Source of the DNA: Oscillospiraceae bacterium | GTDB taxonomy: Bacteria; Bacillota; Clostridia; Oscillospirales; Acutalibacteraceae | Length of the DNA stretch: 39,074 bases | NCBI GenBank assembly: GCA_031262125.1 | Contig: JAISII010000169.1 | Coordinates: 1-39,074, forward strand | Direction: 5' to 3' | Shown: one piece after another, positions 1,862 to 21,709 of the stretch | Layout of the letters: every line of letters starts with the position of its first letter | Numbering within the stretch: position 1 is the first letter of the stretch | Program-made: the position numbers and the translations under genes | Notes under the pieces: model-generated | Told to the model about the DNA's origin: nothing | Databases searched by the model: none | The model's input: the letters and a program-made list of their open reading frames with translations, nothing else

Positions 1862-2881
1862 TTATATGTTTTGCATAATCATCTCTTTTGCCAAGGCAAA
1901 AACGCTCTGCACATCGGCAATTTTGCACATTGCAAGCTGCGAGTGCAAATAGCGTGTGGGAGCCGAAATTGCCAGCACCCTTGCTCCAAAAGCGGTTGTG
2001 TTGTATGCACCCGAGTCGTTACCTCCGGCTACTGCTTGCTTTGCTTGCAGCGGGATGCCCAGTCTCTCGGCAATATTTTGTGCTGTGGAATACATTTGCT
2101 TGTCGTAAATTGCCGACTTGTCCATAAACGAAATTGCAGCACCGCCGCCCAAGGTGCAAACCTGTTCGCCGCTTGCAACGTCGGGCAAATCTTGTGCGGT
2201 TGTGGACTCTATAACAATTGCAGAGTCGGGGTTTAATGCAAAGGCGGCAGTTTTTGCCCCACGCATACCAACTTCCTCCTGCACTGCAAAAACAAAATGC
2301 ACATCGCAGGGGTAGTTGTGTTTTAGCAGCTCGATTAAAATACAGCAGCCCACCCTGTCGTCAATAGCTTTAGAAGTAATAGTGCTGTCGCTAATCTCGC
2401 AGCCCGATTCAAAAACAACACTGTCGCCCGGGCGAACATATTTTTGTGCGTCCTCTTTGTTAAGTGCACCAATATCAATATACATTTGCTTAATTGCAGA
2501 ATATTTATCTCGCTCGGCAGCCGAAGTTAAATGCACCGGCACGCTGGAGATTACACCGTTTAGTTTTTTGCCGCCCACTTTAACACGTTTGCCTGCCAGC
2601 ACCCGTGGTTCTATGCCGCCAACAGTGTCGAACTTTAAAAAGCCGCCGTCGGTTACAGAAGTTACAATCAAGCCGACTTCGTCCATATGTGCCGAAAGTA
2701 CAAGCTTGTTTTTTGGCGTAGAATTGCCCTTTTTAAATGCCAAAATATTGCCTAAGGCATCCACCTTAACATCGGTGCAATGCTCTGCAATCTCGTTTAA
2801 AATAATTTCTCTAACATCCGCTTCGTCGCCGGATAATCCGCCGGCACAAAGCATTTTACGGAGTAAATCTTTATTCAGCAT
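1862..2881 (-). CDS. M42 family metallo-aminopeptidase (FrvX/YsdC/TET-like)
   Basis: 339-aa ORF with LSAHMDEVGLIVT and AVQEEVGMRGAKTAAF metal-ligand motifs. GGAGG lies 8 nt upstream of the ATG. The start overlaps the upstream paralog by 11 nt. Confidence 0.85.
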   Translation of the reverse strand: MLNKDLLRKMLCAGGLSGDEADVREIILNEIAEHCTDVKVDALGNILAFKKGNSTPKNKLVLSAHMDEVGLIVTSVTDGGFLKFDTVGGIEPRVLAGKRVKVGGKKLNGVISSVPVHLTSAAERDKYSAIKQMYIDIGALNKEDAQKYVRPGDSVVFESGCEISDSTITSKAIDDRVGCCILIELLKHNYPCDVHFVFAVQEEVGMRGAKTAAFALNPDSAIVIESTTAQDLPDVASGEQVCTLGGGAAISFMDKSAIYDKQMYSTAQNIAERLGIPLQAKQAVAGGNDSGAYNTTAFGARVLAISAPTRYLHSQLAMCKIADVQSVFALAKEMIMQNI

Positions 2882-3899
2882 TAAACATACCTCCGTCTAA
2901 AATACTTGCGGCAATCAAATCGGCGGTTGCTTCAATATCACCAACATCAACAACCTCCGACTGTGTGTGCATATACCGCAGGGGGATAGAAATCAGCCCG
3001 GTCTCAGCTCCCGTTTTTGCGACACCGATATGGTCAATGTTCGTTCCGGTTGTGCCGCCGCAAACCTCTGTTTGATATGGTATGTTATGTGCTGTTGCGG
3101 TAGATTCAAACAGTGCAGACATTGCTTTGCTTAAAGTGCCCGAGTAGCAAACCATTGGTCCGCCACCCAAAACGCCGGGCGTTGGGTAGTCAATAACCTC
3201 CCCTTGTGTGGCAAACGATACATCAACCGCAATCGCTTTATCAAACTCGAGTGCAAACGCACCTGTTTTTGCTCCTTTTGCAAAGGTTTCCTCCCCTACG
3301 CTGAACAAAAAGCACACGTTGCACTTCAAATCATTTGCTTGGCTGAGTTTTTTTGCAACACTAATTAAGGCTGCAACTCCTGCACGGTTGTCAATAGCCG
3401 GTGAGGTAACACGATTGTTTAAAAGCTCGGCAAATTCGGCAGCGTATGAGATTCGGCAGCCCGTCTGTACAAGCTCTTTAACTTCCTTTTCGCTCAAGCC
3501 TGTGTCTGCAAACAGCTTGTCTATTGGCACGGCACTGTCGCTTTTGCCCGACAAATGCGGCGGAATTGACGTAATAACGCCCTTAATATTCCGCTTGCCG
3601 TGTATTATAACCTCGGTTGCGGGCAAAACCCTTTGGTCTGCCCCGCCAACATTGGCAAAACGCAAAAAACCGCCCCCCGCAAGCGATGTTACCACAAACC
3701 CAACTTGGTCTATGTGGGCATCTAACAGGATGGTATGTTCAAACTCGCCGCTTTGCAGCTTTGCAAAAACACTGCCGCCCTGCCCTATTGTAACCTCGGC
3801 ACAATAGGGTTGCAGGGTTTTAACCAAATATTCGGCAATTGGGGATTCTTCACCGCTTGGGGCAACAATTGTGCATAAATCTTTTAAAAGTTCTTTCAT
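2871..3899 (-). CDS. M42 family metallo-aminopeptidase paralog
   Basis: 342-aa ORF with LDAHIDQVGFVVT and SVGEETFAKGAKTGAF. It has the same fold signature as the downstream paralog but is clearly diverged. Confidence 0.8.
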   Translation of the reverse strand: MKELLKDLCTIVAPSGEESPIAEYLVKTLQPYCAEVTIGQGGSVFAKLQSGEFEHTILLDAHIDQVGFVVTSLAGGGFLRFANVGGADQRVLPATEVIIHGKRNIKGVITSIPPHLSGKSDSAVPIDKLFADTGLSEKEVKELVQTGCRISYAAEFAELLNNRVTSPAIDNRAGVAALISVAKKLSQANDLKCNVCFLFSVGEETFAKGAKTGAFALEFDKAIAVDVSFATQGEVIDYPTPGVLGGGPMVCYSGTLSKAMSALFESTATAHNIPYQTEVCGGTTGTNIDHIGVAKTGAETGLISIPLRYMHTQSEVVDVGDIEATADLIAASILDGGMFNAE

Positions 3900-7779: not shown

Positions 7780-7814
7780 AATCGCCCCACCGCAAAATTA
7801 GCGGCAGGGCGATT
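7780..7814 (-). terminator. Terminator downstream of the 1160-aa surface protein gene (potentially bidirectional)
   Basis: AATCGCCC (7780-7787) pairs with GGGCGATT (7807-7814). An inner 4-bp extension (7790-7793 with 7801-7804) follows a 2-nt internal loop. T-rich tracts are present on both strands. Confidence 0.6.
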
Positions 7815-7858: not shown

Positions 7859-10800
7859 TTATTTGTTAAATATACCCGGGATTACCTCGCCGTCAGGTCC
7901 GTCGTGCTGCAAAAGCCAAGGAGTATCAAAGAAAACAATCTCACCTTTATAGTCAACATAGAAATCAAGGTCCGGCGTTGATACAGTCTCATAAATTCCG
8001 CTGAAACTATTTGAATATGTAACACGCATCTTATAGCGTACTCTTTTTGAGTCAAGGTAGCATCTTTGGTAAATGTCAAAATAATCATCGCTAACATCTA
8101 ACATCATGCCATCCCTTGCTTTAATCGAAACATCACACCAAGAACCCCTATAACCGACCCATTCAGGGTCATTATCGTAATCCTTATTAATGTACAAATC
8201 GGTATCCACACACATAACTTCTATTTTCCAGCCCAGATATTCAAAATCCGATGCTTGCATTTCGCCCTGACTATAGAAGCTAATCAGCTCGGTAACTTCA
8301 TCACGGTCTGGCAGCCAGTTGCCGTTACCGGTTACTTCACTCATCGGTGCATTGAATCGTGGCTTCCATTTTAAGGTTGGAGTTATTCCTCCCACATGAA
8401 TATCCCAATCCGTCTCATAAACTTGGATTTGTTCACCATCAACAACCTTATACACCCTTGCCACCATATGCCAAAGCCCACGCTCAGTAAGTCGATTTAG
8501 AGGGTGATAGCCATAATAATTAACAGTTTCGGTGTTATTAGGGTCGTTTTGCTTGGTAAGCCAATATACATCAATATATTCGCCTGAAGAGTAGTTTATA
8601 TTCAGCCCTTCAGCCCAAACATAATCACCGTCATCGCCCATGGGGTAAAACACTCCTTCAGAGTAGCCTGCCGTATATAGCGGTGGCGTTACGAACAGTC
8701 GGTCGTCGGTAGTGAATATTTTATACGAACCCACGATAGAATCGTAGCCGTATGCACTTATTGTATAGTTTATTGTAAATTCTTTGCCATATTTTTTTGT
8801 TGCAAGGAAAGGTTTGGTTATTGTTTTATATGTCCAATACGCATCTTCATCATCACACCAATACGAGATGCTGATTTCATCCGCGGACGGACCTATAACT
8901 TGGGGGTTAAGCACACTATCAGGCATCAGGTTATATTCTTGGTTTTCATCTGAGCCAACATATTGATAAGAAGCCACTTTGCCGCCCGTCATCGTGCGGT
9001 TTTTAACGGTAAATACCTCGTCTACGGTATAGTAGTAATTGGTGTTTGCACCGGGACCGTATAGGATTATAACAACTACCTTAAACTGCCCTCCGGGCAC
9101 CAAATCAGCTTGTGTCAGCTCGTTGTTGTCAAGGTCGTGCCATCTGAACAGCTTTGAATCGGGTTGTTGTGTAAAAGCCGCAACCGATTCGTCAAACACC
9201 ACATGGGCATTAAGTTCTGAGAGTGTAACAGGGTACTCCAGCTCTTCATCAATTTCAAGCTCCACATGGTTAGAAATATTCATTCCAAGCACCCTAACTC
9301 TGTACGATAGCGGTGTCGGGGCATAATTTACCGCAGTGTTGCCCGTTGGGGTTACTAAGCAAGTTACCATATAATCGCCCGCATATTTAACCTTATAAGG
9401 TCCGGGTCCCGTATACAAGGTATCATTGCCGAATTTTACTGTATAACTGAGCGTATATGTTGCATCCGGCGTAGTAATTGTAGGAGCAACAATACAATCT
9501 TGAAAATCGTTGTTAAATGTCAGTTCAACATTTTGCATAGTTTGGGCTGCCAAGGTTGAAGATATGAGCATAGAAGAAGCAAAATGAAAATACTCGGTTT
9601 CGATGTTATCACCGTTTTTATGGTAGCAATAGTCGGCAGCATCGCCTAAATCTATAAGTGCATAAATACCAAAAGATTTTGCATGGTCGTAAGCGGTAAC
9701 CCAATCAATCGATTCATACCAAGGGTAATTATCAAGGTTTGCAAAATTTGCACCCGCAGCTCTAAATTTTTGATTATTGCTCCAGCCCATATATATAATC
9801 TCGGCTTTTCCGCCAAGTTCCTCAAACCATGTCGGCAACCCCGATAATACTGGTGCTTCTATTGCTTGCGGATAGGTAAAGTTTTTAGAGGTATACGACA
9901 GTGCGGTTTTAAGCTCATATTTTTCAATCTCGAAAATATAATAATCGCTGACTGTGCCATAGCCGTCTGCCGCAATTTGAAAATAAACCTTATGCTCGCC
10001 AACTTCTTTAAAAGACGGCGGTGTTGCAAGGTTATATTCGCCCTCTTGTGTGCCGTACATTAATGTATAGTCGGCATCAAGAGTGGTTACGGTAACAGCA
10101 GGTGCTGCAAAAAATACATTATCAAACACGGCTGTTGTGCCGCTTGTGGGTTTTGTGTATTCAACAGCAGGCAGCCACTTGGCATACAATGTAATATCAC
10201 CGCTCGAGCCGAGCTCAATGCTCTCTACCCTATCTTCCCACACGCCGTCATCGGTATACCAACCGTCAAAAACATAGTCTTCACGTGTTGCCGGTTGCAA
10301 TGTAACAATACTATCGGCACTGTACAACGTTGGGTTAAGATAATAATTTTCGCCGCCGTTTAGCTCATATGTAATGTTATAAAATGTCGGCAAGTTTTCC
10401 AGCATTTTGCCGTCGGCACCAAAGGCATATGTGCCTATGGGCATATCGCAATAAGTGTTATAAACACTGAAAATTCCGCTTGTTTTTACAACGCCGCCCC
10501 AGTTGGAGTAGTAATAATCTTCGCCTGATTTATACAACCCGTTACCCGTAGTATCGCCGTTAATATAAAGGTAAAGTGTGCCGTCAACGTCTACAATGCC
10601 GTCAAGCATTTTGCCGTCGGCTCCAAAAGAGTATGACTTGCCGGCCGGTAAATCACAATAGGTTGATTCTACATAGTATCTGCCATCGGTGAAAATCACA
10701 CCGCCCCAATCGGAGAAGTAATAATCTTCACCCACTTTATATAAACCATTACCTGCAGTAACCCCGTTAATATAAAGGTAAAGTATATCGTCTTTCTCAA

Positions 10801-11341
10801 CAATTCCATTCACCATTTTGCCGTCGGTACCAAAGGTGTAGTTGCCAACCGGCAAATCGCAGAAAGTTGTGTCTACATAATAGGTTAAGCCTGCTATAAT
10901 AACGCCGCCCCAAGCAACAAAGTAATAGGCGTTGTTAATTTTATGCAAACCATACGGGGCAGTTATGCCGTTAATAAAATAGTGCCGTGTACCATCGATT
11001 TCTACAATACCGTTAAGCATTTTGCCGTCGGCATCGATTGTATAGTTCCTGCCAGCCGGCAAATCGCAATAGGTTGCTGCTGCATAATATGTGCCGTCGG
11101 TTAATATCACACCGCCCCAATCGGCAAGGTAATAGTCGTCGTCGATTTTAAACAAACCCTGCACAGAAGTTATGCCGTCAACATAGAGCAATTTTGTGCC
11201 GTCGTCTTGTTCAACAATGCCGGTAAAGTCAGACGTTATCGCCTGTGGTGCATCATCGGCAAAAGCAGTAACACCGCAAACCGTAAACGTTGTTGCTAAC
11301 ATAATTAGTGTTAAGGTAACGCAGAGTATTCTTTTAAACAT
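7859..11341 (-). CDS. Secreted cell-surface protein. Layout: signal peptide, 4 x ~65-aa cell-wall-binding-type repeats, a Listeria-Bacteroides (Flg_new-type) repeat, then ~770 aa of unassigned sequence that is probably Ig-like and adhesin-like.
   Basis: 1160-aa ORF. Signal peptide MFKRILCVTLTLIMLATTFTVCGVTAFA|DD. Repeats of the form LYLYINGxTxGNGLYKxGEDYYxSDWGGVIxTDGRYYVxSTYCDLPAGxSYxFGADGKMLxG span aa ~40-315. NITYELNGGENYYLNP...YVFDGWYTDDG...ITLYAKW (aa ~318-389) is the Listeria-Bacteroides repeat pattern. The rest carries recurring xxYTLxY...G.Y.V...NY...I motifs. Confidence 0.85.
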   Translation of the reverse strand: MFKRILCVTLTLIMLATTFTVCGVTAFADDAPQAITSDFTGIVEQDDGTKLLYVDGITSVQGLFKIDDDYYLADWGGVILTDGTYYAAATYCDLPAGRNYTIDADGKMLNGIVEIDGTRHYFINGITAPYGLHKINNAYYFVAWGGVIIAGLTYYVDTTFCDLPVGNYTFGTDGKMVNGIVEKDDILYLYINGVTAGNGLYKVGEDYYFSDWGGVIFTDGRYYVESTYCDLPAGKSYSFGADGKMLDGIVDVDGTLYLYINGDTTGNGLYKSGEDYYYSNWGGVVKTSGIFSVYNTYCDMPIGTYAFGADGKMLENLPTFYNITYELNGGENYYLNPTLYSADSIVTLQPATREDYVFDGWYTDDGVWEDRVESIELGSSGDITLYAKWLPAVEYTKPTSGTTAVFDNVFFAAPAVTVTTLDADYTLMYGTQEGEYNLATPPSFKEVGEHKVYFQIAADGYGTVSDYYIFEIEKYELKTALSYTSKNFTYPQAIEAPVLSGLPTWFEELGGKAEIIYMGWSNNQKFRAAGANFANLDNYPWYESIDWVTAYDHAKSFGIYALIDLGDAADYCYHKNGDNIETEYFHFASSMLISSTLAAQTMQNVELTFNNDFQDCIVAPTITTPDATYTLSYTVKFGNDTLYTGPGPYKVKYAGDYMVTCLVTPTGNTAVNYAPTPLSYRVRVLGMNISNHVELEIDEELEYPVTLSELNAHVVFDESVAAFTQQPDSKLFRWHDLDNNELTQADLVPGGQFKVVVIILYGPGANTNYYYTVDEVFTVKNRTMTGGKVASYQYVGSDENQEYNLMPDSVLNPQVIGPSADEISISYWCDDEDAYWTYKTITKPFLATKKYGKEFTINYTISAYGYDSIVGSYKIFTTDDRLFVTPPLYTAGYSEGVFYPMGDDGDYVWAEGLNINYSSGEYIDVYWLTKQNDPNNTETVNYYGYHPLNRLTERGLWHMVARVYKVVDGEQIQVYETDWDIHVGGITPTLKWKPRFNAPMSEVTGNGNWLPDRDEVTELISFYSQGEMQASDFEYLGWKIEVMCVDTDLYINKDYDNDPEWVGYRGSWCDVSIKARDGMMLDVSDDYFDIYQRCYLDSKRVRYKMRVTYSNSFSGIYETVSTPDLDFYVDYKGEIVFFDTPWLLQHDGPDGEVIPGIFNK
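10397..11224 (-). repeat. Four tandem ~195-bp (65-aa) wall-binding-type coding repeats
   Basis: Recurring DNA strings such as aagcattttgccgtcggc and caccgccccaatcgg recur with ~195-nt spacing. At protein level each unit is three ~20-aa aromatic/Gly sub-repeats, like choline-/glucan-binding (CW_binding_1-type) repeats. Confidence 0.8.
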
Positions 11342-11498: not shown

Positions 11499-11529
11499 AA
11501 ATCCCCTCTGCCATAGACAAAGGGGATTT
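11499..11529 (-). terminator. Rho-independent terminator of the scaffoldin gene
   Basis: AAATCCCCT (11499-11507) pairs with AGGGGATTT (11521-11529). On the minus strand it is followed by TTTGCGTTTC. Confidence 0.7.
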
Positions 11530-11586: not shown

Positions 11587-14500
11587 TTAAGCAATAACTT
11601 TGCCGCTTGCATCAAAGGTGTATTCCATCGGTACAGAAAGACCATTGGTGATTTCTGCAAAGAAGGTTTGGTCAGTAATAAGTTTGCCGCCTTCGGTTAC
11701 ATAGTAATAATCACCGTCTACTGCAATCAAGCCCAAAGGTGCGGGGTTGCCGTTTTGATAGAGATAGATGCCGTCGGTTTTTGTTACAAAACCATCAAGC
11801 ATTTTACCATCGACTCCAAAAGTGTAGTTGCCAATCGGCAAATCACAGTTGGTAACATCTACATAATATGTGCCGTCGGTGTTAATTACGCCGCCCCAGC
11901 TTGCAAAGTAATAATCGCCGTCTAACTCAAACAAACCATATGGAGTGGTAATTCCGTTAATGTAGAGATACAGTATACCGTCAATCTCTACCATACCATT
12001 AAGCATTTTGCCGTCTGCACCGAAAGAGTAAGACAGGCCCGCCGATAAATCACAATAGGTTGTATCTACATGATAACTGCCATCGGTTTTAATTACGCCA
12101 CCCCAATCAGAGAGGTAATAATCATCGCCTATTTTGTATAAACCTTTGCTTGAAGTATCGCCGTTAATATAAAGGTAAAGTGTACCGTCGTTTTCTACAA
12201 TACCATTAAGCATTTTGCCATCGGCACCGAAATAGTACGACCTGTCTGCCGGCAAATCACAATAGGTTGTTACTACATGGTATCTGCCATCGGTGGTAAT
12301 TACACCGCCCCAATCAGAGAGGTAGTAATCGTCGCCAATTTTGTATAACCCTTTACTTGTAGTGTCGCCGTTAATATAAAGGTAAAGTGTGCCTTCGTTT
12401 TCTACAACACCGTTAAGCATTTTGCCGTCTGCACCAAAATAGTACGACCAGCCTGCTGGTATATCACAATAGGTTGTATCTACATGGTATCTGCCGTCTG
12501 TGAAAATTACGCCGCCCCAATAGGAGAGGTAGTAATCGTCGCCTATTTTGAATAAACCTTTACTTGCAGTATCGCCGTTAATATAAAGGATACCGTCGTA
12601 AATGCCGTTAAGCATTTTGCCGTCTGCTCCGAAATAATACGACCTGCCTGCCGGTAAATCGCAGTAAGTATTTGCAACATGGTATCTGCCATTGGCAAGA
12701 TTAATGCCGCCCCAATCGGAGAGATAATAATCATCTCCTATTTTGTACAAACCGTTGCTTGTGGTGTCGCCGTTAATATAAAGGTAAGATGTATCATCGC
12801 TTTCTAAAACACCGTTAAGCATTTTACCGTCGGCTCCAAAATAGTACGATCTGCCTGCCGGCATATCACAATAGGTTGTTTCTACATGGTATCTGCCGTC
12901 TGTGAAGATTACGCCGCCCCAATTGGAGAGATAATAATCGTCGCCGACTTTATATAAACCGTTAGCAGTAGTTACGCCGTCAAGGTAAAGGTAAAGTGTT
13001 CCTTCTTTTTCGACTATTTCGTTAATGCCTTTGTAATCTTCGCCGAAAATCATTCCGTAAATTTCGCCTTTTTGTGCATAGCCATTATCGCTGAAGAAAT
13101 ATACAGCATCTCCGATTTGTTGGAAGCCTTGCAAGCCTAAACCGTTCTGTGCATAAGCATAACCGTTACGGTCTGTATAGAAACCGTCAGCAATTTCTAC
13201 AGTTAAATCACGTGTGCCGTCTTCGTTAAAGAAGTACCAAGTTAAAACACCTTCCGCATTGGGAACAAGTTGTAACCCGCCCTCTAAACGGTAACCGGCT
13301 TCAAAGAAGTAATCTACATCATCGATTGTATACCAACCGCTGTAGTAGTATGAGGTTTCGCTATAGAAATAACGTGTACCGAAAAGTGTTTTCACCCATC
13401 CGCCAACGGGCTCCGGCTCGGGGTTAGTCGGGTCAGGTTCAGGATCTGTGGGATCCGGGTCAGGGTCTGTTGGGTCTGTTATCGGGTCAGTCGGGTCGGG
13501 CTCAGGATCCGTGGGATCCGGCTCAGGGTCAGTTGGATCCGGTTCGGGTTCTGTCGCTGCAGGTGTAATCGTAATAGCTTCAGAATCTGAAGTTAGAGAG
13601 AAAGAATCATCGATTACTGTAAAATATTCAACTAAGTAAGAGAGGTCTTCGGTTGTTGAATCTGCTACAGCCAAATCTCTGATATTCAAATCTACGCTGC
13701 CTGTGCCTGCAGCAATTACTTTAAATGTAATTGTAGCAAGAACTTTGCCCTCGTCGTTAAAGTCAAAACCATTAAAACCGGTTGCGGGATGGTAATAAGC
13801 AGAAGAGTTGAAATAGATTTTGCCTTCTTCGCCTGTGTTTGTCATTAAATTGCCGCCCGAAAGAACAGGGATACTGATTCTTTCAAATTCGATAACGTCC
13901 GAAGAGTATGTGATATGAACGTCAAGTGAAGTTGCAATTTTATCGGAAGGCAGGTTGAGTTCGTAAGTTGCTGTTACTGTGTCGCCGATATTTGCTTCGG
14001 TAAGTTCGAATGTGGAGATAACAGGTTCGGGAGTTGTGTATGTGTATGAATTTACCGACGTCGGGTCTACAGTCTCGTTGTCAAAATAGAAGCATACGCC
14101 GTCATACAAATCTGCAATTGCAATATCTTCTGTTTGGAAGTAATTGCCCCATTTTGTTGCGTCAAAATTATTGCGGAAGAGTATTCCTATAGCGGTATCT
14201 AAAACTTCGCCGGGAATAACTGCCGACCAAATATCGCCGTTTTCGCCGTAATTACCTGTTGCTGTCATCGGTATTGTGCCGTCTGAATTAGAGGTCCAAT
14301 AGAAGATAGCTGCAGGTGCCCAATTATATTTGTTCTCTAAGTATACTGTAATATCGGCAGTAGGAGGTGCTGTTGGAGGTTCTGTAGGTGGCACAGATTC
14401 TTTATATTCTCTCCAGTGGCCATCGAGTTTATCGGGCCAGGCTGTGCCTTCTGCTATGCTGGTGAAAGTGAATGTGCAGAAGTCCGGGTCGGCTGAGATT

Positions 14501-16602
14501 GTTGTGTCGATAGTTTCGTTGTAAACTATGGCATCCCATGTTGAGGCGGTAATTTCGCTTAACTCTTTTGTCGGGTCTATACGGCCAAACAATGCGTTTG
14601 CTCCGATATATTCAGCAGGTACCGAGTAGCTGTAGATGGGAGGATTGCTGCCCGTTACATATGTCGGGGCTATCCAAAGGTTGCCGCTTTCGTTCCATAC
14701 ATACAAGCCTGATTTTACACCGCTGCTTGCCCATGCAGGCAAGTTCTTTGTATCAAGATATACTGTTATGGGTTCGCTCGGTTCAACCGGTTCGGTTGCA
14801 GCTGTAGTAGGTTCGTCTACGGTGGGTTCTTCATCGCCCCCTGTCGGTGCGATGAGAATTTCGCAATAGCTGCCGTTGACTACATCTTCGCCAACATGGA
14901 AGATGATTTCTACTGTTGTCCAGGCCCATGTGATTTCTATTACTGCATTACCTGCAGAGTCTGCTAAGCCATCTTCATTCCAAGAATGACCGTTTGGTGA
15001 TTCTACAGAATCATACCATGCGCCGTTTGTTACTTTGAATTCGTATGTGCCTTTTACTAAGTGTTCAAAAACTAAGCCGTATGTGTTATCGTCAATTTTG
15101 GTCATTTCCAGACCGTCAACGTTCCAAGCACCAACTTCTTCGCCTACAAGACCAACTGTGCCTGCCAAATAGTATTTAACTTCCGGGGCAGGTTCGGGTT
15201 CGTCTTCAGTTGGGGCTTCGGTTGGTTCTGCAGGTGTGTATGTGTAAGAATTAACCGATTGCACATTTGTAGTGCTGTCAAAATAGAATGCAATGTTGTC
15301 ATGCAAGTCCGCTACTGCAATATCTTCTGTTTTGAAGTAGTCTTCCCATTTGTCTTTTGCAGTCTCGTACTCGTTGCGGAACAGAATACCGTCTGCACTG
15401 TCTAAAACTGTGCCGGGGATTACTGCTGACCAAAGGTCGCCGTTTGCTCCGCTTGCCCCTGTTGCTGTCATGTTTATTGTGCCGCTTGTTTCAGCTCCCC
15501 AATAATAGATTGCTGCAGGTGCCCAGTTGTAATTGTTTTCAAGGTATACTGTAATATCTTCCGAAGGTACGGGAGGTTCGGTTACGGGAGCCTCTGTGGG
15601 AGCGTCGGTTACAGGAGGTTCAGTAGGAGCTTCAGTGGGAGGCTCTGTTGGTTCTGCGGGTGCTCTGTATTCTCTCCAGTGTCCGGCGAATTTGTCTTCC
15701 CATGTTTTACCGTCTGCACTATCAAACGAGAATGTGCTGAATGCCGGGTCAGCCGAGATTGTTGTGTTGATAGTTTCGTTGTATACTATTGTATCCCATG
15801 TTGTACCGGTGATGTCGCTTAATTCTTTTGTCGGGTCAAGTCGAGCGAACAATGCACCTGCACCGATATATTCTGCAGGTACTGAATAACTATAGATTGG
15901 CGGGTTGCTGTTTTCTACATATGTCGGGGCAATCCAAAGGTTGCTGCCGCCGTTTATCCATACATACAAACCTGATTTTACGCCACTACTGGTCCATGGT
16001 GTAAAGTTTTTAGTATCTAAATATACTGTAATAGGTTCGGCAAGCACCGGAGGTTCGGTAACAGGTGCTTCTGTAATCGGCTCTGTGGGAGCATCAGTCG
16101 GATACTCTGTTACTTCTTCTGCTGTGGTCTCAACAACAGGAGGTTCGGTGGGTTCTGTTGGTGGTACTGTGGGCTCTTCTTCAGTTACAACTTCAAAAGC
16201 TACAACGTCAGACCATTTGCCGCCGCTTTTCGCAGAACTCTCCAGCGACCAAGCATAATCTTCGCCAATAGGAATATTGTTTGTTTGATTACCGCCATTG
16301 TCATTGAAAATTATGGTATCATACAAGCTAAGGTTTGCGTTTAAAGTGTAATAGTAATAGTTGTCATCGGCCTCAAGATATGCCATTTTTTGCCCTGGCC
16401 ATTCGGCATTTTTTGCACTTGAGCCGCTTTTGTACATATAAGCGTAAATGTCGTACCAGCCGCTGCTGATTGTTTTTGCTTTGCGGAAATAAATTTCCGA
16501 ACTGTCTGAACCATCTGCGGCTACTGCCGTAACAGCACAAACAGAAAACATTGCAGCAACCATTACTGCGGTTAAGATAATGCTAAGAATTCGTTTTGCC
16601 AT
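11587..16602 (-). CDS. Amylosome-type scaffoldin-like surface protein. Layout: signal peptide, CBM25/26-like starch-binding module, two copies each of two further module families, a beta-sandwich module, one cohesin-like domain, a PEPDPTD linker and a C-terminal wall-binding repeat array.
   Basis: 1671-aa ORF. Signal peptide MAKRILSIILTAVMVAAMFSVCAVTAVAA|DG. Module A: IYFRKAKTISSGWYDIYAYMYKSG..AEWPGQKM...YDTIIFNDNGGNQTNNI (WPGxxM/IIFN..G.QT pattern of CBM25/26). Module family B at aa 190-312 and 611-733; family C at aa 349-456 and 750-857. Cohesin-like domain at aa 861-1012. Six full, one partial and several degenerate wall-binding repeats at aa 1066-1671. There is no LPXTG motif and no SLH domain. 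Confidence 0.85.
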   Translation of the reverse strand: MAKRILSIILTAVMVAAMFSVCAVTAVAADGSDSSEIYFRKAKTISSGWYDIYAYMYKSGSSAKNAEWPGQKMAYLEADDNYYYYTLNANLSLYDTIIFNDNGGNQTNNIPIGEDYAWSLESSAKSGGKWSDVVAFEVVTEEEPTVPPTEPTEPPVVETTAEEVTEYPTDAPTEPITEAPVTEPPVLAEPITVYLDTKNFTPWTSSGVKSGLYVWINGGSNLWIAPTYVENSNPPIYSYSVPAEYIGAGALFARLDPTKELSDITGTTWDTIVYNETINTTISADPAFSTFSFDSADGKTWEDKFAGHWREYRAPAEPTEPPTEAPTEPPVTDAPTEAPVTEPPVPSEDITVYLENNYNWAPAAIYYWGAETSGTINMTATGASGANGDLWSAVIPGTVLDSADGILFRNEYETAKDKWEDYFKTEDIAVADLHDNIAFYFDSTTNVQSVNSYTYTPAEPTEAPTEDEPEPAPEVKYYLAGTVGLVGEEVGAWNVDGLEMTKIDDNTYGLVFEHLVKGTYEFKVTNGAWYDSVESPNGHSWNEDGLADSAGNAVIEITWAWTTVEIIFHVGEDVVNGSYCEILIAPTGGDEEPTVDEPTTAATEPVEPSEPITVYLDTKNLPAWASSGVKSGLYVWNESGNLWIAPTYVTGSNPPIYSYSVPAEYIGANALFGRIDPTKELSEITASTWDAIVYNETIDTTISADPDFCTFTFTSIAEGTAWPDKLDGHWREYKESVPPTEPPTAPPTADITVYLENKYNWAPAAIFYWTSNSDGTIPMTATGNYGENGDIWSAVIPGEVLDTAIGILFRNNFDATKWGNYFQTEDIAIADLYDGVCFYFDNETVDPTSVNSYTYTTPEPVISTFELTEANIGDTVTATYELNLPSDKIATSLDVHITYSSDVIEFERISIPVLSGGNLMTNTGEEGKIYFNSSAYYHPATGFNGFDFNDEGKVLATITFKVIAAGTGSVDLNIRDLAVADSTTEDLSYLVEYFTVIDDSFSLTSDSEAITITPAATEPEPDPTDPEPDPTDPEPDPTDPITDPTDPDPDPTDPEPDPTNPEPEPVGGWVKTLFGTRYFYSETSYYYSGWYTIDDVDYFFEAGYRLEGGLQLVPNAEGVLTWYFFNEDGTRDLTVEIADGFYTDRNGYAYAQNGLGLQGFQQIGDAVYFFSDNGYAQKGEIYGMIFGEDYKGINEIVEKEGTLYLYLDGVTTANGLYKVGDDYYLSNWGGVIFTDGRYHVETTYCDMPAGRSYYFGADGKMLNGVLESDDTSYLYINGDTTSNGLYKIGDDYYLSDWGGINLANGRYHVANTYCDLPAGRSYYFGADGKMLNGIYDGILYINGDTASKGLFKIGDDYYLSYWGGVIFTDGRYHVDTTYCDIPAGWSYYFGADGKMLNGVVENEGTLYLYINGDTTSKGLYKIGDDYYLSDWGGVITTDGRYHVVTTYCDLPADRSYYFGADGKMLNGIVENDGTLYLYINGDTSSKGLYKIGDDYYLSDWGGVIKTDGSYHVDTTYCDLSAGLSYSFGADGKMLNGMVEIDGILYLYINGITTPYGLFELDGDYYFASWGGVINTDGTYYVDVTNCDLPIGNYTFGVDGKMLDGFVTKTDGIYLYQNGNPAPLGLIAVDGDYYYVTEGGKLITDQTFFAEITNGLSVPMEYTFDASGKVIA
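11590..13407 (-). repeat. C-terminal array of wall-binding-type repeats: a degenerate ~135-aa lead-in, six full ~65-70-aa units and one partial unit
   Basis: Units are GTLYLYINGDTTSKGLYKIGDDYYLSDWGGVIxTDGRYHVxTTYCDLPAGRSYYFGADGKMLNGxVE. Neighbouring units are highly similar at the DNA level, and all resemble the repeats at 10397-11224. Confidence 0.85.
13408..13548 (-). repeat. In-frame 21-bp tandem repeat encoding a (PEPDPTD)n linker
   Basis: Protein reads PEPDPTDPEPDPTDPEPDPTDPITDPTDPDPDPTDPEPDPTNPEPEP. The DNA shows repeated ggatccgg(g/c)tcagggtc units. Confidence 0.9.
13567..14022 (-). other. Cohesin-like domain of the scaffoldin (aa ~861-1012)
   Basis: VISTFELTEANIGDTVTATYELNLPSDKIATSLDVHITYSSDVIEFERISIP...EGKIYFNSS...DEGKVLATITFKVIAAGTGSVDLNI follows the cohesin pattern G.TV.V.V.L......I...D..I.YD..VLE........G.I.F.......DG.LA.I.FKV....G....L. 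Boundaries are by eye. Confidence 0.65.
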
Positions 16603-16837: not shown

Positions 16838-19800
16838 TTATACTTCGGGTATATAGGTGTAAGAATTTACAGACTGCAGTTCAGAGGCACTGTCGAAATA
16901 GAATGCAATGCCGTCATACAAATCTGCAACTGCAATGTCCTCTGTTTGATAATAATTGCCCCATGTTTCTTTAACTTCTTCGTAATTGTTGCGGAACAAA
17001 ATTGCTGTTGCACTTTCCAAAATTTCGCTCGGTATTACTGCCGACCAGATTGCACCATTACTTCCATTTTTGCCCGTTGCTGTCATTTCAATTATACCTA
17101 TTAAGCCGTCGGGGTTCCAATAGCGGATTGCTGCCGGTGCCCAATTATATTTATTTTCAAAATAAATTGTTATTGAAGAGCCGGGGTTAGGCGGGTAATA
17201 TGGGTCGCCGCCGCCGCCAACGTCGCTGAGTGTGCCGCTTTCGGGGTCAAACACTTTTTGGTCGTAAGAGGTATCTCCTGTTATTGAAATGCAGTTTGCA
17301 CCGCTTTGCAAGTTAATGTTATCCCACATATTGTAATAATCTGTGCCTACAGCACCGCCATCATCTTTAGCAACAAGTGTGGCAACTTCATAGCCTGTGC
17401 GGTAAATTGCAATATATGTCCAATCGCTGGGCAATTCATCCAAAAATGCATAGGTAGAGTTATCAGCATCGCCGGCTGCTTCAAGCTCTTTTGTCAGCGA
17501 GAAGCTTTCGCCGGTAGCTTTGTTGTAAATCCACAATTTTGCACCTTCTATAAACAGCCATTTGCCTGTTGCGGTTTTATCAGAACCGGATGTGCTGTCA
17601 TAAACATAGAAAGCATTGTCGCCGGGGTTCGGGTCGGGAGGATTGGGAGGTTCGGGTGGGTCAATTATCGGGTCGCCATGGTCAACATAAGACCATGTGC
17701 CTTTGCCGCCGGTTTCTATTGTAAGTGTGTTCATACCTGCCTGCCCTGCAAGGTCGGCAGTTTGGTTAGTTGTCTTCCAATCTGCTTTATCAACAAGCTT
17801 AAAGCAATCAACACCCGCCGGAACTGAAGTCGTATAGGCGGAAAAGTCAATTGAATAAACTCCATTGCCCTCGTCAGTACATTGAATAAACGGGTCAGTC
17901 GCAGTTGTTGGCAAGCCGCTTACACCCCAACCGTGAATATAAACAGATTCCCAGCCGCTGGGTTTTACAAAGTACAGTTTTAAGGGGATTGTAGCTTCAA
18001 CAGCATCGGGGTCATAATTGGCAATCAAATTACCTGAGGTAGAACCTGTAAGTTCATAAGCATTGTTGCTGCCAATGGTAATATTTTCCCATTTATCATA
18101 TACAATTGTCTTATCGCCCAAAGCTGCTTCTACTTCTGCACCTGTTGCCGGACCACCATCATAAGAACCTTTTACATTATAGATGGAGATATTGTTAACC
18201 GAGCTGCCTAAAGCAAAGCTGGCATAACGTGAATTATTGTCGGTGGGTGAATCGTTCTCGCCCAAATACCATGTGCCTGTGTCGTTATCACGTATCCACA
18301 GCAGTTTTGCATCGTCTAACGCCCAGCCTACTTTGTCGGCTACATAGAATGTTTTTGCGTTCGGGTCGGGCTCGGGAGGATTGGGAGGTTCGGGTGGGTC
18401 AACAATTATCGGACCGTCGCCATAGTCAACATAAGACCAAGTGCCTTTTAGCCCTTGTTGAATTGTAAGTGTGTTTTTGCCCTTCTCGCCTGCAATATTG
18501 TCGGTTTGCTTTGTTGCATTCCACTCTGCATCTGTTGTCGCAATTGTTTCAGTAAGTTTAAACATAGGCATACCCGGTGTGATTGCAGATGTATACGCCG
18601 AGAAGTCAAACGAATAAACACCATTACCTTCGTCTGTACATTCAAAGAACTGAGCATTTAAGCCGGTTCCACCCCAGCCGTAAACATAAACAGTCTGCCA
18701 ATCAGCGGGTTTTATAAAGTAGAGCTTTAATGGAATTGAATCTTCAACAGCATTGGGGTCATAATTAGCAATCAGTTCGCCTGTGGAGTTGCCTGTAAGT
18801 GCGTAAGCGTTGTTGCTGCCGATTGAGATATTTTCCCATTTGTTATAAACTATTGACGTATCATTCAGTGCAGCTTCAACTTCTGCACCTGTTGCAGGAC
18901 CACCTGCATAAGAACCCATAACATGGTATATTGAGATATTGCTTACATTTTTATCTAAAATGAATTCTGCATAGCGTGCATCGTTAGAAGGCAGTTCTTT
19001 AAAGCCCATATACCATTCGCCGGAAACATTATCATGTACCCAAAGGTCTGCTGCATTATCTAATGCCCATGCTACTTTGTCTACTACATAGAATAATTTT
19101 CTGTCGGGGTCTGGCTCCGGTTCGGTGTCAGGTACGGTGGTCGGTGTCGTGTCAGGTACGGTGGTGATTTCGCTGCCACCTGCAGGTTCGCCTACATTAC
19201 CTGTTTTCTCAAAATGTGCAAGATATTTTTGTATTAACGTAACATCGGCTACTGTAACACCTGATTCTTCATCGGCATTTGCCGCCGAAAGAGCTGTGCC
19301 TGTAATTGATTTAACTTTAGCCAAATGTTTTTGAATTTCGGTTGCATCGTCTACTGTTACTTTATTGTCGCCATTAGCATCGCCAATAATATAGCTGCCG
19401 GGGTTAATGACCGGAGCGGTAGTAGTTACAACGGGTGTAGTTGTAGTTATAACGGGTGTAGTTGTAGTTATAACGGGTGTTGTGGTGGTTATAATTGGTG
19501 TAGTTGTTGTAGATGTTTCTACACTTGTGGGTTGTTCATCGTCTTTTGCCGGCACAAGTATAACTTCCGGTGCAGGTGCCTCGGTAGGAACTTTGCCTGT
19601 GTATACTTTAAAAACCGAATTGGTAGTTAAAATATACGATTGGTTCTTTTCTACAAAAGGTCCTGTTGGTACTTTAGCAGCCGGATATTGAGGCGGCGGG
19701 TTTTTACCGCTGTTATCCATAAAAACAATGTGGCAACCTTCGGCATAACCTTTCGGCAGCTCGTAAAAATAATATCCGTAGCTAATTTCATCGTGCCTTG

Positions 19801-21709
19801 TCATTTTTTCGCCGGGCCACTCTGCATTAATAATCTGATTAACGCCTTCTTGCTCTCTATCCCACTTAGTACGCTTGCCATTGCTATGATACCATACATA
19901 GATGTTTGGAACATCATAACCCTTAGGATTACCATTCGAAAATTTAGTGTTATCCAAAACAACCCATACGCCGCTGCCATCTTTTTCTACTTTTTCGTAA
20001 TTATAGGTGTTGGTAACGGTTTTTGTGCCGTCGGTTGCAGTTAAGGTTACTTTGTATTTTGTACCTGCTTTGTCGTTTTCGCCCAAATAATAGTCGAAAT
20101 TGCCATTTGTAATAACATATTTTTGACCATTGTTAATCTGGAATGTGCCATAGGTTGCATTGTTGTAGCTGAAGTTTAATTTAAGGTAGCTTGTGCCAAA
20201 CTTTTTACTGTCGGATGAACTGGTAACAAAAGGTGTTGTTGCAGCCTGACGCAGAACAGCTACGCCGCTGGAACCAATGTTACCCTTAATTTGACCACCC
20301 GAAACAGTAAATTTGTCGCCTGTTACCATATCGGTATAATTGCCGTCTGCAAGCTTGTTTGCTTTAATATTAACCGAGCCGGAGTTAGAAGCAGCTGTGT
20401 TAACAATAACAGCACCGCTTGTTCCACGCTCTATATAAGCAAAAGTTCCCGACGAAGCAACATATTCGGATTGACCGATAAATGCATTATGAAATTTATT
20501 AACTTCGGCGACGGGTACACTTTTCCAAGAAGGGTCGCCTATTTCGCCCATAAGACCTGATTCGCCTGTTCGGGAGAAATAAAGGGCGGTTGCATGTTCT
20601 CTTGAGCCAACAAGTGCCCATGTTTTAACCATATCCGAAATGCTAAAATCTTTGGTATAATCGATGTTACGACTACCGTCCGGATTGAACTCATCACCGG
20701 CATAACAGTCGTGAGATTCTGCCCACAAAACGTATTTATTAGGTGTGTTACCTGCATTGTAAGAGCCTTGAGCAGCAGCGGAGGCACTATGATTTTTTAC
20801 TCCGTTGCGAATATTACGACCTATAACATTGTCTGTTATAGACATAAATTCGGTATAAGCATCAAACCCTCTCGAACGCCCATTGCCTGTGGTGTTTAAG
20901 ATTTCGCCGTAATAGTAAGGGGTTACACCTTTGCCTTGTGCATATGCTGTTGTGGCGTTTAAAACATTCGGCCAGAAGTCTGAAGCATATTGACCATCAT
21001 AAGGAGTTTCGATATGCTTTGCAGCATCAAAACGGAAGCCGTCAACGCCTACATCAATACACTGTTTAAGCAGGTCAGTAACACTTTGCTGAATGTATGA
21101 GTTGCCGGTGTTAACACTTTGCATGCCGCTAAGGCGACCTTGCACCTGCCACTTGATATTCTTGTCGTCTGTATTCTGTGATTCTTGGTGAAAATAGTCT
21201 GAGGTTATACCTGCGTTAAAAATCTGCGGCTCATACTGCTTAACTATATCATCAAGGGTACCTTCGCTTTTGCCGGCTGTACCCAAATGGTTTGCCACGA
21301 TATCTACAATAATTTTAATGCCGTACTTATCAGCCTCGGTACACAAAGACCTCAATTCGTCTTCGCTGCCCAAATAGTTAGTTTCAATTGAATAGCTAAC
21401 CGGCTGATAGAGCTTCCACCACTGCCCGCCAACGTCGATATTTTTGGGTGTGTATGTCTTGGGCATTTGCACCGGCGAAGTTTGCACCGTGCTGTAGCCC
21501 GACTGTGCTATAACCGGAAGCTGTGCCTTAATGTTGTTGTAAGACCAGTTCCATGCGTGCAGAATTACACCATCTTGTACATTAGTTGCCAAGTTATACT
21601 CGCCTGTTGTGCCAGCTGCTGCAACATTAATTGTAGCGGGCAAAACCGCCATTGTTGCAAGCAGAGTAACAGCCAACAGCAAACTCAGCAATCTTTTTGC
21701 TTTTTTCAT
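16838..21709 (-). CDS. Secreted multi-modular GH13 alpha-amylase (AmyE-like) with a CBM26-like module, a Thr-rich linker, an internal dockerin, duplicated ~230-aa modules and a C-terminal family-C module
   Basis: 1623-aa ORF. Signal peptide MKKAKRLLSLLLAVTLLATMAVLPATINVAAA|G. GH13 conserved regions: DIVANH; GFRFDAAKH (D228); YYYGEIL (E269); LWAESHD (D334). CBM-like segment: IYVWYHSNG...AEWPGEKM...HIVFMDNSG. Dockerin at aa 774-835. AGGAGG RBS at ~21718-21723. Confidence 0.9.
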   Translation of the reverse strand: MKKAKRLLSLLLAVTLLATMAVLPATINVAAAGTTGEYNLATNVQDGVILHAWNWSYNNIKAQLPVIAQSGYSTVQTSPVQMPKTYTPKNIDVGGQWWKLYQPVSYSIETNYLGSEDELRSLCTEADKYGIKIIVDIVANHLGTAGKSEGTLDDIVKQYEPQIFNAGITSDYFHQESQNTDDKNIKWQVQGRLSGMQSVNTGNSYIQQSVTDLLKQCIDVGVDGFRFDAAKHIETPYDGQYASDFWPNVLNATTAYAQGKGVTPYYYGEILNTTGNGRSRGFDAYTEFMSITDNVIGRNIRNGVKNHSASAAAQGSYNAGNTPNKYVLWAESHDCYAGDEFNPDGSRNIDYTKDFSISDMVKTWALVGSREHATALYFSRTGESGLMGEIGDPSWKSVPVAEVNKFHNAFIGQSEYVASSGTFAYIERGTSGAVIVNTAASNSGSVNIKANKLADGNYTDMVTGDKFTVSGGQIKGNIGSSGVAVLRQAATTPFVTSSSDSKKFGTSYLKLNFSYNNATYGTFQINNGQKYVITNGNFDYYLGENDKAGTKYKVTLTATDGTKTVTNTYNYEKVEKDGSGVWVVLDNTKFSNGNPKGYDVPNIYVWYHSNGKRTKWDREQEGVNQIINAEWPGEKMTRHDEISYGYYFYELPKGYAEGCHIVFMDNSGKNPPPQYPAAKVPTGPFVEKNQSYILTTNSVFKVYTGKVPTEAPAPEVILVPAKDDEQPTSVETSTTTTPIITTTTPVITTTTPVITTTTPVVTTTAPVINPGSYIIGDANGDNKVTVDDATEIQKHLAKVKSITGTALSAANADEESGVTVADVTLIQKYLAHFEKTGNVGEPAGGSEITTVPDTTPTTVPDTEPEPDPDRKLFYVVDKVAWALDNAADLWVHDNVSGEWYMGFKELPSNDARYAEFILDKNVSNISIYHVMGSYAGGPATGAEVEAALNDTSIVYNKWENISIGSNNAYALTGNSTGELIANYDPNAVEDSIPLKLYFIKPADWQTVYVYGWGGTGLNAQFFECTDEGNGVYSFDFSAYTSAITPGMPMFKLTETIATTDAEWNATKQTDNIAGEKGKNTLTIQQGLKGTWSYVDYGDGPIIVDPPEPPNPPEPDPNAKTFYVADKVGWALDDAKLLWIRDNDTGTWYLGENDSPTDNNSRYASFALGSSVNNISIYNVKGSYDGGPATGAEVEAALGDKTIVYDKWENITIGSNNAYELTGSTSGNLIANYDPDAVEATIPLKLYFVKPSGWESVYIHGWGVSGLPTTATDPFIQCTDEGNGVYSIDFSAYTTSVPAGVDCFKLVDKADWKTTNQTADLAGQAGMNTLTIETGGKGTWSYVDHGDPIIDPPEPPNPPDPNPGDNAFYVYDSTSGSDKTATGKWLFIEGAKLWIYNKATGESFSLTKELEAAGDADNSTYAFLDELPSDWTYIAIYRTGYEVATLVAKDDGGAVGTDYYNMWDNINLQSGANCISITGDTSYDQKVFDPESGTLSDVGGGGDPYYPPNPGSSITIYFENKYNWAPAAIRYWNPDGLIGIIEMTATGKNGSNGAIWSAVIPSEILESATAILFRNNYEEVKETWGNYYQTEDIAVADLYDGIAFYFDSASELQSVNSYTYIPEV
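17669..19099 (-). repeat. Two tandem copies (R1 aa 871-1100, R2 aa 1119-1347) of a ~230-aa bipartite module separated by PPEPPNPP linkers. A diverged half-copy (R3) follows at 17225-17614.
   Basis: R1 and R2 align along their whole length, for example FYVxDKVxWALDxAxLW...NISIYxVxGSYxGGPATGAEVEAAL...KWENIxIGSNNAYxLTG...LIANYDPxAVExxIPLKLYFxKPxxWxxVYxxGWG...CTDEGNGVYSxDFSAYT...GTWSYVD. Confidence 0.85.
19205..19390 (-). other. Dockerin module (aa ~774-835) inside the amylase
   Basis: Two Ca-binding-loop plus helix segments: GDANGDNKVTVDDATEIQKHLAKV and NADEESGVTVADVTLIQKYLAHF. These match the duplicated D.N.D..V...D.T.IQ..LA pattern of ruminococcal dockerins. Confidence 0.8.
19412..19510 (-). 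repeat. In-frame 24-bp tandem repeat encoding a (TTTTPVIT)n linker
   Basis: Protein reads TTTTPIITTTTPVITTTTPVITTTTPVVTTTAP. The DNA shows repeated gtagttgtagttataacgggt units. Confidence 0.9.
20246..21613 (-). other. GH13 catalytic domain plus C-domain (aa ~33-488)
   Basis: The four canonical alpha-amylase regions listed above closely resemble B. subtilis AmyE (GFRFDAAKH, YGEIL, ESHD). Boundaries are by eye. Confidence 0.85.

Follow-up and report, generated by a model that had tools for sequence, protein, structure and literature searches.

The mode of anchoring decides whether cohesin-dockerin complexes are machinery of the cell surface or shed, shareable packages of enzymes. This question is raised by a scaffoldin encoded on a stretch of 39,074 nucleotides (nt) from an Oscillospiraceae bacterium (GenBank assembly GCA_031262125.1, contig JAISII010000169.1, positions 1 to 39,074 of the forward strand; hereafter the window), which lacks the usual means of attachment. 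The gene (11587..16602; 1671 amino acids (aa), according to the list of open reading frames (ORFs), translation and Pfam) encodes, in this order, a signal peptide, CBM26, duplicated starch-module-like repeats separated by Pro/Thr/Glu linkers, a cohesin, an acidic linker and a C-terminal repeat module of 605 aa. All long ORFs of the window are on the minus strand, to which the coordinates of its features refer. From homology, position and genomic context, we consider it probable, with moderate confidence, that the repeat module is a non-covalent anchor holding the scaffoldin to the cell surface (wall).

The scaffoldin gene lies between the genes of a GH13 amylase and of a second protein with the same repeats. 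No LPXTG-like motif was found near the C-terminus of any of these three proteins, Pfam gave no match to the S-layer homology (SLH) domain, and a hydropathy scan revealed no hydrophobic segment besides the N-terminal signal peptide in each of them. The initial annotation, which had reported that LPXTG signals, SLH domains and C-terminal transmembrane helices are missing from all three, was therefore correct in this respect. The repeat module is the sole candidate attachment device in the scaffoldin and occupies, at the C-terminus after an extended linker, the place of SLH or LPXTG in known anchoring scaffoldins.

The identification of the protein as a cohesin-bearing scaffoldin was likewise borne out. 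Its cohesin (aa 868-986; 13645..14001) reached 22.2 bits with the Pfam Cohesin model, close to the cut-off of 24.1, and its top sequence match in the PDB was 7urp (E 0.024, 111 aligned residues), the second cohesin module of Sca5 of Ruminococcus bromii. The best Foldseek match of a single-sequence AlphaFold2 (AF2) model of low confidence (pLDDT 55) was also 7urp, a third line of evidence to which we give little weight. A word-index search with the cohesin gave no match, but an exhaustive HMMER search recovered 35 proteins, with relatives at E 1e-46 to 1e-10. The best of them (E 1e-46 to 1e-16) have N-terminal dockerins and two to six copies of the module; three (P0132, P0134 and P0135) clear the Pfam cut-off, and P0135 also possesses CBM26. 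Because the sequence and fold matches to 7urp agree and because the HMMER relatives occur in multiple copies in dockerin-bearing proteins, we assign the module to the cohesins of the R. bromii type as a true, though divergent, member. In addition, the scaffoldin gene adjoins that of an amylase with a probable dockerin.

In the full-text literature searched, no cohesin scaffoldin with cell-wall-binding or choline-binding repeats has been described, which is not proof of absence. The amylosome of R. bromii is anchored by sortase via Sca2 and Sca5 (PMC12663171), the mucinolysome of Limousia is attached via LPXTG (PMC12997984), and R. difficilis and some rumen ruminococci use transmembrane helices (PMC13463774). 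For amylosomes, sortase and transmembrane helices are the anchors on record (PMC12663171, PMC13463774). A survey of cellulosome producers lists SLH, LPXTG, LysM, transmembrane-helix and Cu-amine-oxidase-like anchors (PMC11557425). The scaffoldin of the window resembles those with LysM, transmembrane or Cu-amine-oxidase-like anchors in that a cohesin is combined with an alternative attachment device (PMC11557425, PMC13463774), but cell-wall-binding repeats do not figure among the published anchor types (PMC11557425). Like Sca2 and Sca5, it is a cohesin-bearing protein, probably of the cell surface and part of a starch-degrading complex; the closest solved relative of its cohesin is the second cohesin of Sca5, and GH13 amylases with CBM26 and a dockerin (a probable one here) are found in both systems. 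Unlike Sca2 and Sca5, which are covalently attached via a sortase motif, it has no such motif and carries the repeat module instead.

Repeats of this superfamily are already known from polysaccharide-degrading gut bacteria. In Butyrivibrio proteoclasticus, which is without cohesins or dockerins, nine enzymes that degrade polysaccharides, Amy13A among them, have C-terminal PF01473 repeats, 'believed to anchor them' (PMC2914790), and CWB1 repeats are listed as common in Ruminococcaceae and Lachnospiraceae (review, PMC5817068). In Amy13A, Xyn10B and others, which are large, cell-associated polysaccharide-degrading proteins of this gut Firmicute, the repeats are C-terminal as in the scaffoldin, a comparison made at the level of the superfamily. 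The carriers in B. proteoclasticus are enzymes, whereas the carrier here is a cohesin scaffold, so that the whole complex and not a single enzyme would be anchored. Here, a known anchor fold takes the form of a distinct cassette of 69-aa super-repeats, and with the cohesin scaffoldin it has a carrier of a new class.

Repeat architecture and predicted fold

The repeat module (aa 1067-1671; 11590..13404) was delimited by translation and Tandem Repeats Finder, which agree with the C-terminal position and the length of about 600 residues given in the initial annotation. It begins with about six short, degenerate YF/GW hairpins (aa 1067-1192, 126 aa; 13027..13404), recognized by matches to Choline_bind_3 and Choline_bind_1 and by the strands of the AF2 model; they correspond to the shorter repeats already noted ahead of the main array. 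There follow seven units of 65-72 aa with three hairpins each (aa 1193-1671; 11590..13026), which were defined by repeat scan, alignment, profile and model. When the units are cut at the motif ...DGKML(N/D)G, they start at nt 13026, 12810, 12603, 12408, 12201, 11994 and 11790 and comprise aa 1193-1264 (72 aa), 1265-1333 (69 aa), 1334-1398 (65 aa), 1399-1467 (69 aa), 1468-1536 (69 aa), 1537-1604 (68 aa) and 1605-1671 (67 aa). Tandem Repeats Finder detected a period of 207 nt at 11836-13011 (5.7 copies, score 1033) and also a period of 402 nt (score 1273).

Several details of the initial annotation had to be revised. The usual period by unit alignment is 68-69 aa and not about 65 aa. Of the six full units and one partial unit that had been counted, the last is divergent but of full length, and represents a conserved C-terminal cap that is present also in homologues; the single shortened unit is the third. 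Each unit does consist of three sub-repeats, but these are not equal in length (about 19, 21 and 28 aa instead of 20 aa each). The Cys described as conserved is present in six of the seven units of the scaffoldin and in all four of the downstream protein, but occupies that column in only 26% of the 534 units of the wider family (see below); it is therefore a local feature and not a defining one, and was rejected as a functional feature.

The family was delineated with a hidden Markov model (HMM) built from the 11 units of the window, seven of the scaffoldin and four of the downstream protein, which retrieved 534 near-full-length units from 120 listed database proteins. The arrays in these 120 proteins comprise up to nine units, usually three to eight, and are mostly C-terminal; the family consensus of the unit is VEKDGKLYYYVNGKKAYAGLIKIDGDYYFANSSGKLVTNGTYYVWKTNCDLPAGNYEFGADGKML.

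The Pfam family Choline_bind_3 (PF19127) matched the isolated module in five stretches with 36.8 bits (cut-off 27), and the whole protein with 21.9 bits. Choline_bind_1 (PF01473, CW_binding_1) stayed below its threshold of 20.5, with 12.5 bits for the module and 15.1 bits for the segment of short repeats. A search of the PDB with the single sequence of the module barely detected a fragment of the toxin TcdA (E 0.05). A profile of 82 diverse units matched the choline-binding proteins CbpF (1e-14) and CbpJ (1e-13), TcdA (1.6e-12) and glucansucrases (2e-8), and also TcsL, Pce, TcdB, LytA and Cpl-1, with dozens of members of the superfamily in all. Positions 3-43 of this profile align with two canonical repeats of about 20 aa, and the remainder represents a longer third repeat.

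The AF2 model of the module, computed with an alignment of 29 sequences, had a mean pLDDT of 94.4 and consists of beta-hairpins only, about six in the first 126 residues and then three per unit. The third hairpin of each unit has a loop of about 10 residues that holds the motif C-D-L-P. Among the PDB structures matched by Foldseek, the combined repetitive oligopeptide (CROP) domains of TcsH, TcdA, TcdB and TcsL lead (E 1.8e-29 to 1e-20), followed by the choline-binding module of LytB (6.5e-20), GtfD (9e-17), CbpJ, CbpF and Pce (about 1e-13) and alternansucrase (1e-11); all of the top 50 are CROPs, choline-binding modules or glucan-binding domains. Together, the Pfam match, the unit profile, the AF2 model and the Foldseek results establish that the module belongs to the superfamily of choline-binding, CROP and glucan-binding repeats, as initially proposed; the predicted fold, a solenoid of tandem beta-hairpins, is also the one that had been expected. 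The solenoid of LytA has three hairpins per turn. If this geometry holds for the module, one unit of 69 aa would form one turn, and the long loops would be aligned on one face.

The module shares with the pneumococcal choline-binding modules (LytA, CbpF, CbpJ, Pce and LytB) the solenoid of tandem aromatic/Gly hairpins of about 20 aa (homology 1e-14 to 1e-6) and the use of one module by many surface proteins with differing heads. It is acidic (isoelectric point about 4.1), and so are the pneumococcal modules. It differs from them by the fixed super-repeat of three hairpins (about 69 aa) in which every third hairpin is long, by a much longer array (about 27 hairpins) and by a head that is a cohesin scaffold and not a wall hydrolase or adhesin. 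The CROPs of TcdA, TcdB, TcsL and TcsH, which provide the best structural matches, are likewise long arrays of short repeats with periodic long ones, but they belong to secreted toxins, bind host glycans or receptors, and are only 16-19% identical to the module. In CROPs, the long repeats come about every four to six short repeats, which differs from the spacing observed here.

The cassette on other proteins

The whole cassette, comprising the short hairpins, seven to eight units and the cap, is kept as a block with 55-59% identity on unrelated heads. It starts with the motif ...W(A/G/V)KTLFG(T/W)RY(Y/F)Y... and its cap ends with ...YTFD..GK(I/V)(I/V)(G/A). The part with the short hairpins is conserved in four cohesin proteins (P0001, P0002, P0005 and P0008) and in two proteins with an NAGPA domain. 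The taxon names attached to the relatives are Oscillospiraceae, Acutalibacteraceae or Clostridia.

The two NAGPA proteins are encoded in the two closest species-representative genomes carrying the cassette (L001 and L002; contig scan of metagenome-assembled genomes (MAGs)). They are secreted proteins of 1713 and 1782 aa (L001, 6683..11824; L002, 6677..12025), in which an N-terminal NAGPA phosphodiester glycosidase domain (107 and 98 bits) is followed by about 700 aa without assignment and the terminal cassette. Both genes sit within clusters of GT2 and GT4 glycosyltransferases and Y_phosphatase3, to which an acyltransferase_3 and a Polysacc_synt family protein are added in L001. The clusters look like loci for the biosynthesis of a surface glycopolymer, and the NAGPA-cassette proteins are candidate wall-polymer-trimming enzymes; a literature search on the function of bacterial NAGPA yielded nothing useful. 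Units of 69 aa were found also in a polytopic membrane protein of 754 aa (P0090) with a Wzy_C domain (O-antigen ligase/polymerase-like), where three units precede the Wzy_C domain in a long stretch between transmembrane-like segments, a predicted external loop. Two further proteins (P0104 and P0117) are fusions of units with Y_phosphatase3.

In at least seven other proteins, one or more cohesins are followed by the cassette (P0001, P0002, P0005, P0008, P0031, P0034 and P0043). One of them (P0031; two cohesins, seven units) is encoded directly downstream of an 830-aa protein with cohesin and dockerin in two independent assemblies, a gene order known classically for anchoring scaffoldins and the primary or adaptor scaffoldins beside them. 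This two-gene, sca-like cluster (L007, 7395..12685; L008, 835..6125; Oscillospiraceae MAG) was recorded with no sortase motif noted. The gene of P0005 adjoins that of a second cohesin protein, and P0001 stands alone. GH13, GH70 and CBM26 are each absent from all 120 listed relatives, 19 of which contain Flg_new repeats. Some homologues bear the label 'glucan-binding YG repeat protein' of the Joint Genome Institute (JGI).

Proposed wall anchor and alternative roles of the module

As a wall anchor, the module would act as follows. After Sec export, its approximately 27 beta-hairpins would form an elongated rod, a solenoid like those of other cell-wall-binding repeats, which would bind many copies of a repeated motif in the bacterium's own wall glycopolymer and gain avidity through multivalency. 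As ligand, a sugar-phosphate polymer or a secondary polysaccharide of the wall would be probable, and choline need not be involved. Held away from the cell by the acidic Pro/Asp/Thr linker, the starch-binding modules and the cohesin would face outward, and enzymes with a dockerin, for instance the amylase of the gene just upstream, could dock to the cohesin. The bacterium would in this way be tethered to starch, and the amylase would be concentrated at the cell surface. The module would do the same job as the sortase-linked Sca2 and Sca5 of R. bromii, but reversibly. The binding to the wall, the nature of the ligand and the pairing of cohesin and dockerin are inferences.

The context of the cassette fits a module of general use, by which extracytoplasmic proteins are directed to the surface glycopolymer of their own cell and which has been recruited as an anchor of cohesin scaffolds, both here and in the seven or more other proteins mentioned above. 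The gene directly downstream of the scaffoldin agrees with this, since in its product the unit is found four times, joined to another kind of surface-protein head. The association with NAGPA hints at a sugar-phosphate polymer as ligand. Among the ligands considered in the initial annotation, which had proposed a non-covalent wall anchor with alpha-glucan binding as the alternative, the comparative context favours a surface glycopolymer of the cell itself over alpha-glucan. Choline or teichoic acid as the ligand was not supported, and the module does not belong to the family of 65-aa glucan-binding repeats.

Several observations weigh against the anchor function or its simplest forms. According to the literature on LytA, the aromatic cage for choline is formed by a Trp after the leading Gly, a Trp or Tyr in the second strand, and a Tyr of the next hairpin. 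At the level of sequence, the cage Trp is not conserved in any sub-repeat: unlike in the pneumococcal modules, the residue after the leading Gly is Ile or Val in the first hairpin of the units of the window, Leu in the second, and Arg or Thr in the third, and family-wide this position of the second hairpin holds Leu in 79% and Phe in 15% of cases. The missing cage argues against classical choline binding. The low score for Choline_bind_1 likewise sets the module apart from the pneumococcal ones. The isoelectric point of the module would not favour purely electrostatic binding to anionic teichoic acid. The fold alone does not single out a ligand, since clostridial toxins use it as a lectin for host glycans and GH70 enzymes use it to bind glucan. 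A search for the 69-aa unit in phage endolysins gave nothing specific, with only four matches (24-30% identity) by tblastn in 50,697 phage records. All four are unverified fecal contigs, two of which were inspected, encode generic proteins with 20-aa repeats and look bacterial; a scan of viral contigs for the repeat unit found nothing. Finally, the protein encoded downstream of the scaffoldin carries its array N-terminally.

It is unlikely that the array binds the substrate (starch or a different alpha-glucan) as a carbohydrate-binding module and adds avidity to the CBM26-type modules. The profile and fold matches include the glucan-binding domains of glucansucrases, GtfD and alternansucrase, dextran binding is known from related repeats in GH70 glucansucrases and in glucan-binding proteins of streptococci, the JGI label of some homologues points the same way, and the rest of the scaffoldin is directed at starch. 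However, the NCBIfam model of the 65-aa glucan-binding repeat (TIGR04035, glucan_65_rpt) gave only 17.0 bits for the module and 13.6 bits for the downstream protein, against a cut-off of 147.7, and the glucan-binding structures rank below the toxin CROPs and LytB in the fold search. Moreover, none of the 120 listed relatives contains GH13, GH70 or CBM26, and the heads that do carry the cassette (NAGPA, Wzy_C, Y_phosphatase3, Flg_new and cohesin) are not linked to starch. The scaffoldin also has a CBM26 of its own, which speaks for binding to the wall rather than to glucan.

The toxin CROPs, as the best fold matches, suggest another role, since those of TcdA, TcdB and TcsH bind host receptors: as an adhesin or lectin, the array might recognize glycans of foreign origin (host mucus, epithelium or another microbe) and bridge starch, enzymes and that surface. 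The long hairpin in every third position is reminiscent of the long repeats of CROPs, and the Flg_new repeats in 19 relatives are of a kind typical of surface adhesins. We regard this role as unlikely, since it leaves both the fusions to surface-polysaccharide enzymes and the location in their gene clusters unexplained, and would leave the scaffoldin of the window and the P0031-type scaffoldin cluster without any attachment to the cell. Also unlikely, in our view, is a module without a specific ligand that acts as a rigid spacer or by self-association in a secreted, cell-free scaffoldin. LytA does dimerize via its terminal hairpins, and cell-free scaffoldins have been presumed in R. bromii (Sca3 and Sca4; PMC12663171). 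However, the strong conservation of a cassette of about 600 aa, with defined N- and C-terminal caps, on unrelated heads indicates a specific function, and spacing is already provided by the Pro/Asp/Thr linker.

Starting again from the wall anchor, we give about even credence to a wider proposition, namely that uncultured Oscillospiraceae-like Clostridia possess a class of anchoring scaffoldins, of which no description was found, that keep cohesin-dockerin complexes (amylosomes and others) on the cell and whose cassette of about 600 aa and 27 hairpins reads a lineage-specific wall glycopolymer, is shared with enzymes that build or trim this polymer (NAGPA glycosidase and Wzy_C-type protein), and attaches reversibly. 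A complex attached reversibly could be shed or exchanged between cells. If true, the repeat solenoid would add a non-covalent, potentially regulated mode of attachment to those already described, genome screens limited to the published anchor types would probably overlook such scaffoldins, and a ready-made display module of about 600 aa would be available for engineering surface complexes in gut Clostridia. The link between the cassette and polysaccharide loci would then offer a route to identifying the wall polymer that the cassette reads.

Scaffoldin head, neighbouring genes and locus

The signal peptide of the scaffoldin (approximately aa 1-29; 16516..16602) is the sole hydrophobic segment of the protein in the hydropathy scan. 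It is followed by CBM26 (aa 46-109; 16276..16467), identified by Pfam (PF16738, 49.1 bits) and a PDB match to Amy13K (6b15, E 5e-5). The head has no orthologue among 5.8 billion proteins (9 matches only). The acidic Pro/Asp/Thr/Glu linker (aa 1014-1066, 53 aa; 13405..13563), delimited by Tandem Repeats Finder and composition, contains 19 Asp and Glu residues, no Lys or Arg and no aromatic residues. Tandem Repeats Finder detected in it a tandem repeat of 21 nt (7 copies, 13408..13554) that encodes the PDPTDPE-type sequence, and at this site the stalk joining the cohesin to the repeat module is likely to be especially prone to changes in length.

Five of the 34 cohesin relatives (P0139, P0145, P0149, P0158 and P0163) are single-cohesin proteins of 238-332 aa that end in a C-terminal transmembrane helix, at the position equivalent to that of the repeat module. 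They match the transmembrane-anchored cohesins of R. difficilis and rumen ruminococci (PMC13463774). The repeat unit is absent from these 34 relatives.

The upstream gene (16838..21709) encodes the amylase (1623 aa), in which Pfam recognized GH13 and three matches to CBM26. Its probable dockerin (aa 776-830; 19220..19384) is internal and follows a (TTTTP(I/V)I/V)n linker; it scored 22.0 bits with Dockerin_1 (cut-off 22.9) and shows two Ca-loop/helix segments. The amylase ends in a module of about 105 aa that has two counterparts in the scaffoldin, with about 63% identity. A non-catalytic module, possibly a starch-binding one, is therefore common to enzyme and scaffold. The amylase is a probable cohesin partner of the scaffoldin.

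The downstream gene (7859..11341) encodes a protein of 1160 aa with a signal peptide, four repeat units, an Flg_new repeat and about 770 aa without assignment. The units (68-71 aa each; aa 41-316, 10394..11221), delimited by Tandem Repeats Finder and unit alignment, come directly after the signal peptide, with a period of 207 nt at 10529-11158. The approximately 770 aa past the units and the Flg_new repeat (7859..10393) had no Pfam match, and the sole PDB sequence match in this stretch was internalin B, on the Flg_new repeat itself.

The three-gene group is flanked on both sides by housekeeping genes, with the his operon, polC, ispG, an M50 peptidase, dxr and cdsA on one side, and a Mur ligase-family gene, a MiaB-like radical-SAM gene (UPF0004 and Radical_SAM), two M42 peptidases and a methionine gamma-lyase on the other. 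A hairpin scan found no terminator-like site in the gap between amylase and scaffoldin. A terminator-like hairpin, with a 14-bp stem and a T-rich tail, is located 58 nt past the stop codon of the scaffoldin (11499..11529), and a strong hairpin lies also 3' of the third gene (7814..7780).

Two observations concern the flanking genes. HisZ and HisG are usually two separate subunits; an ORF of 545 aa (26618..28255) joins a HisZ-like domain (tRNA-synt_His, aa 11-318) to HisG (ATP phosphoribosyltransferase, aa 389-540). The two M42 glutamyl-aminopeptidases (1862..3899) are tandem paralogues of 339 and 342 aa, whose genes overlap by 11 nt.

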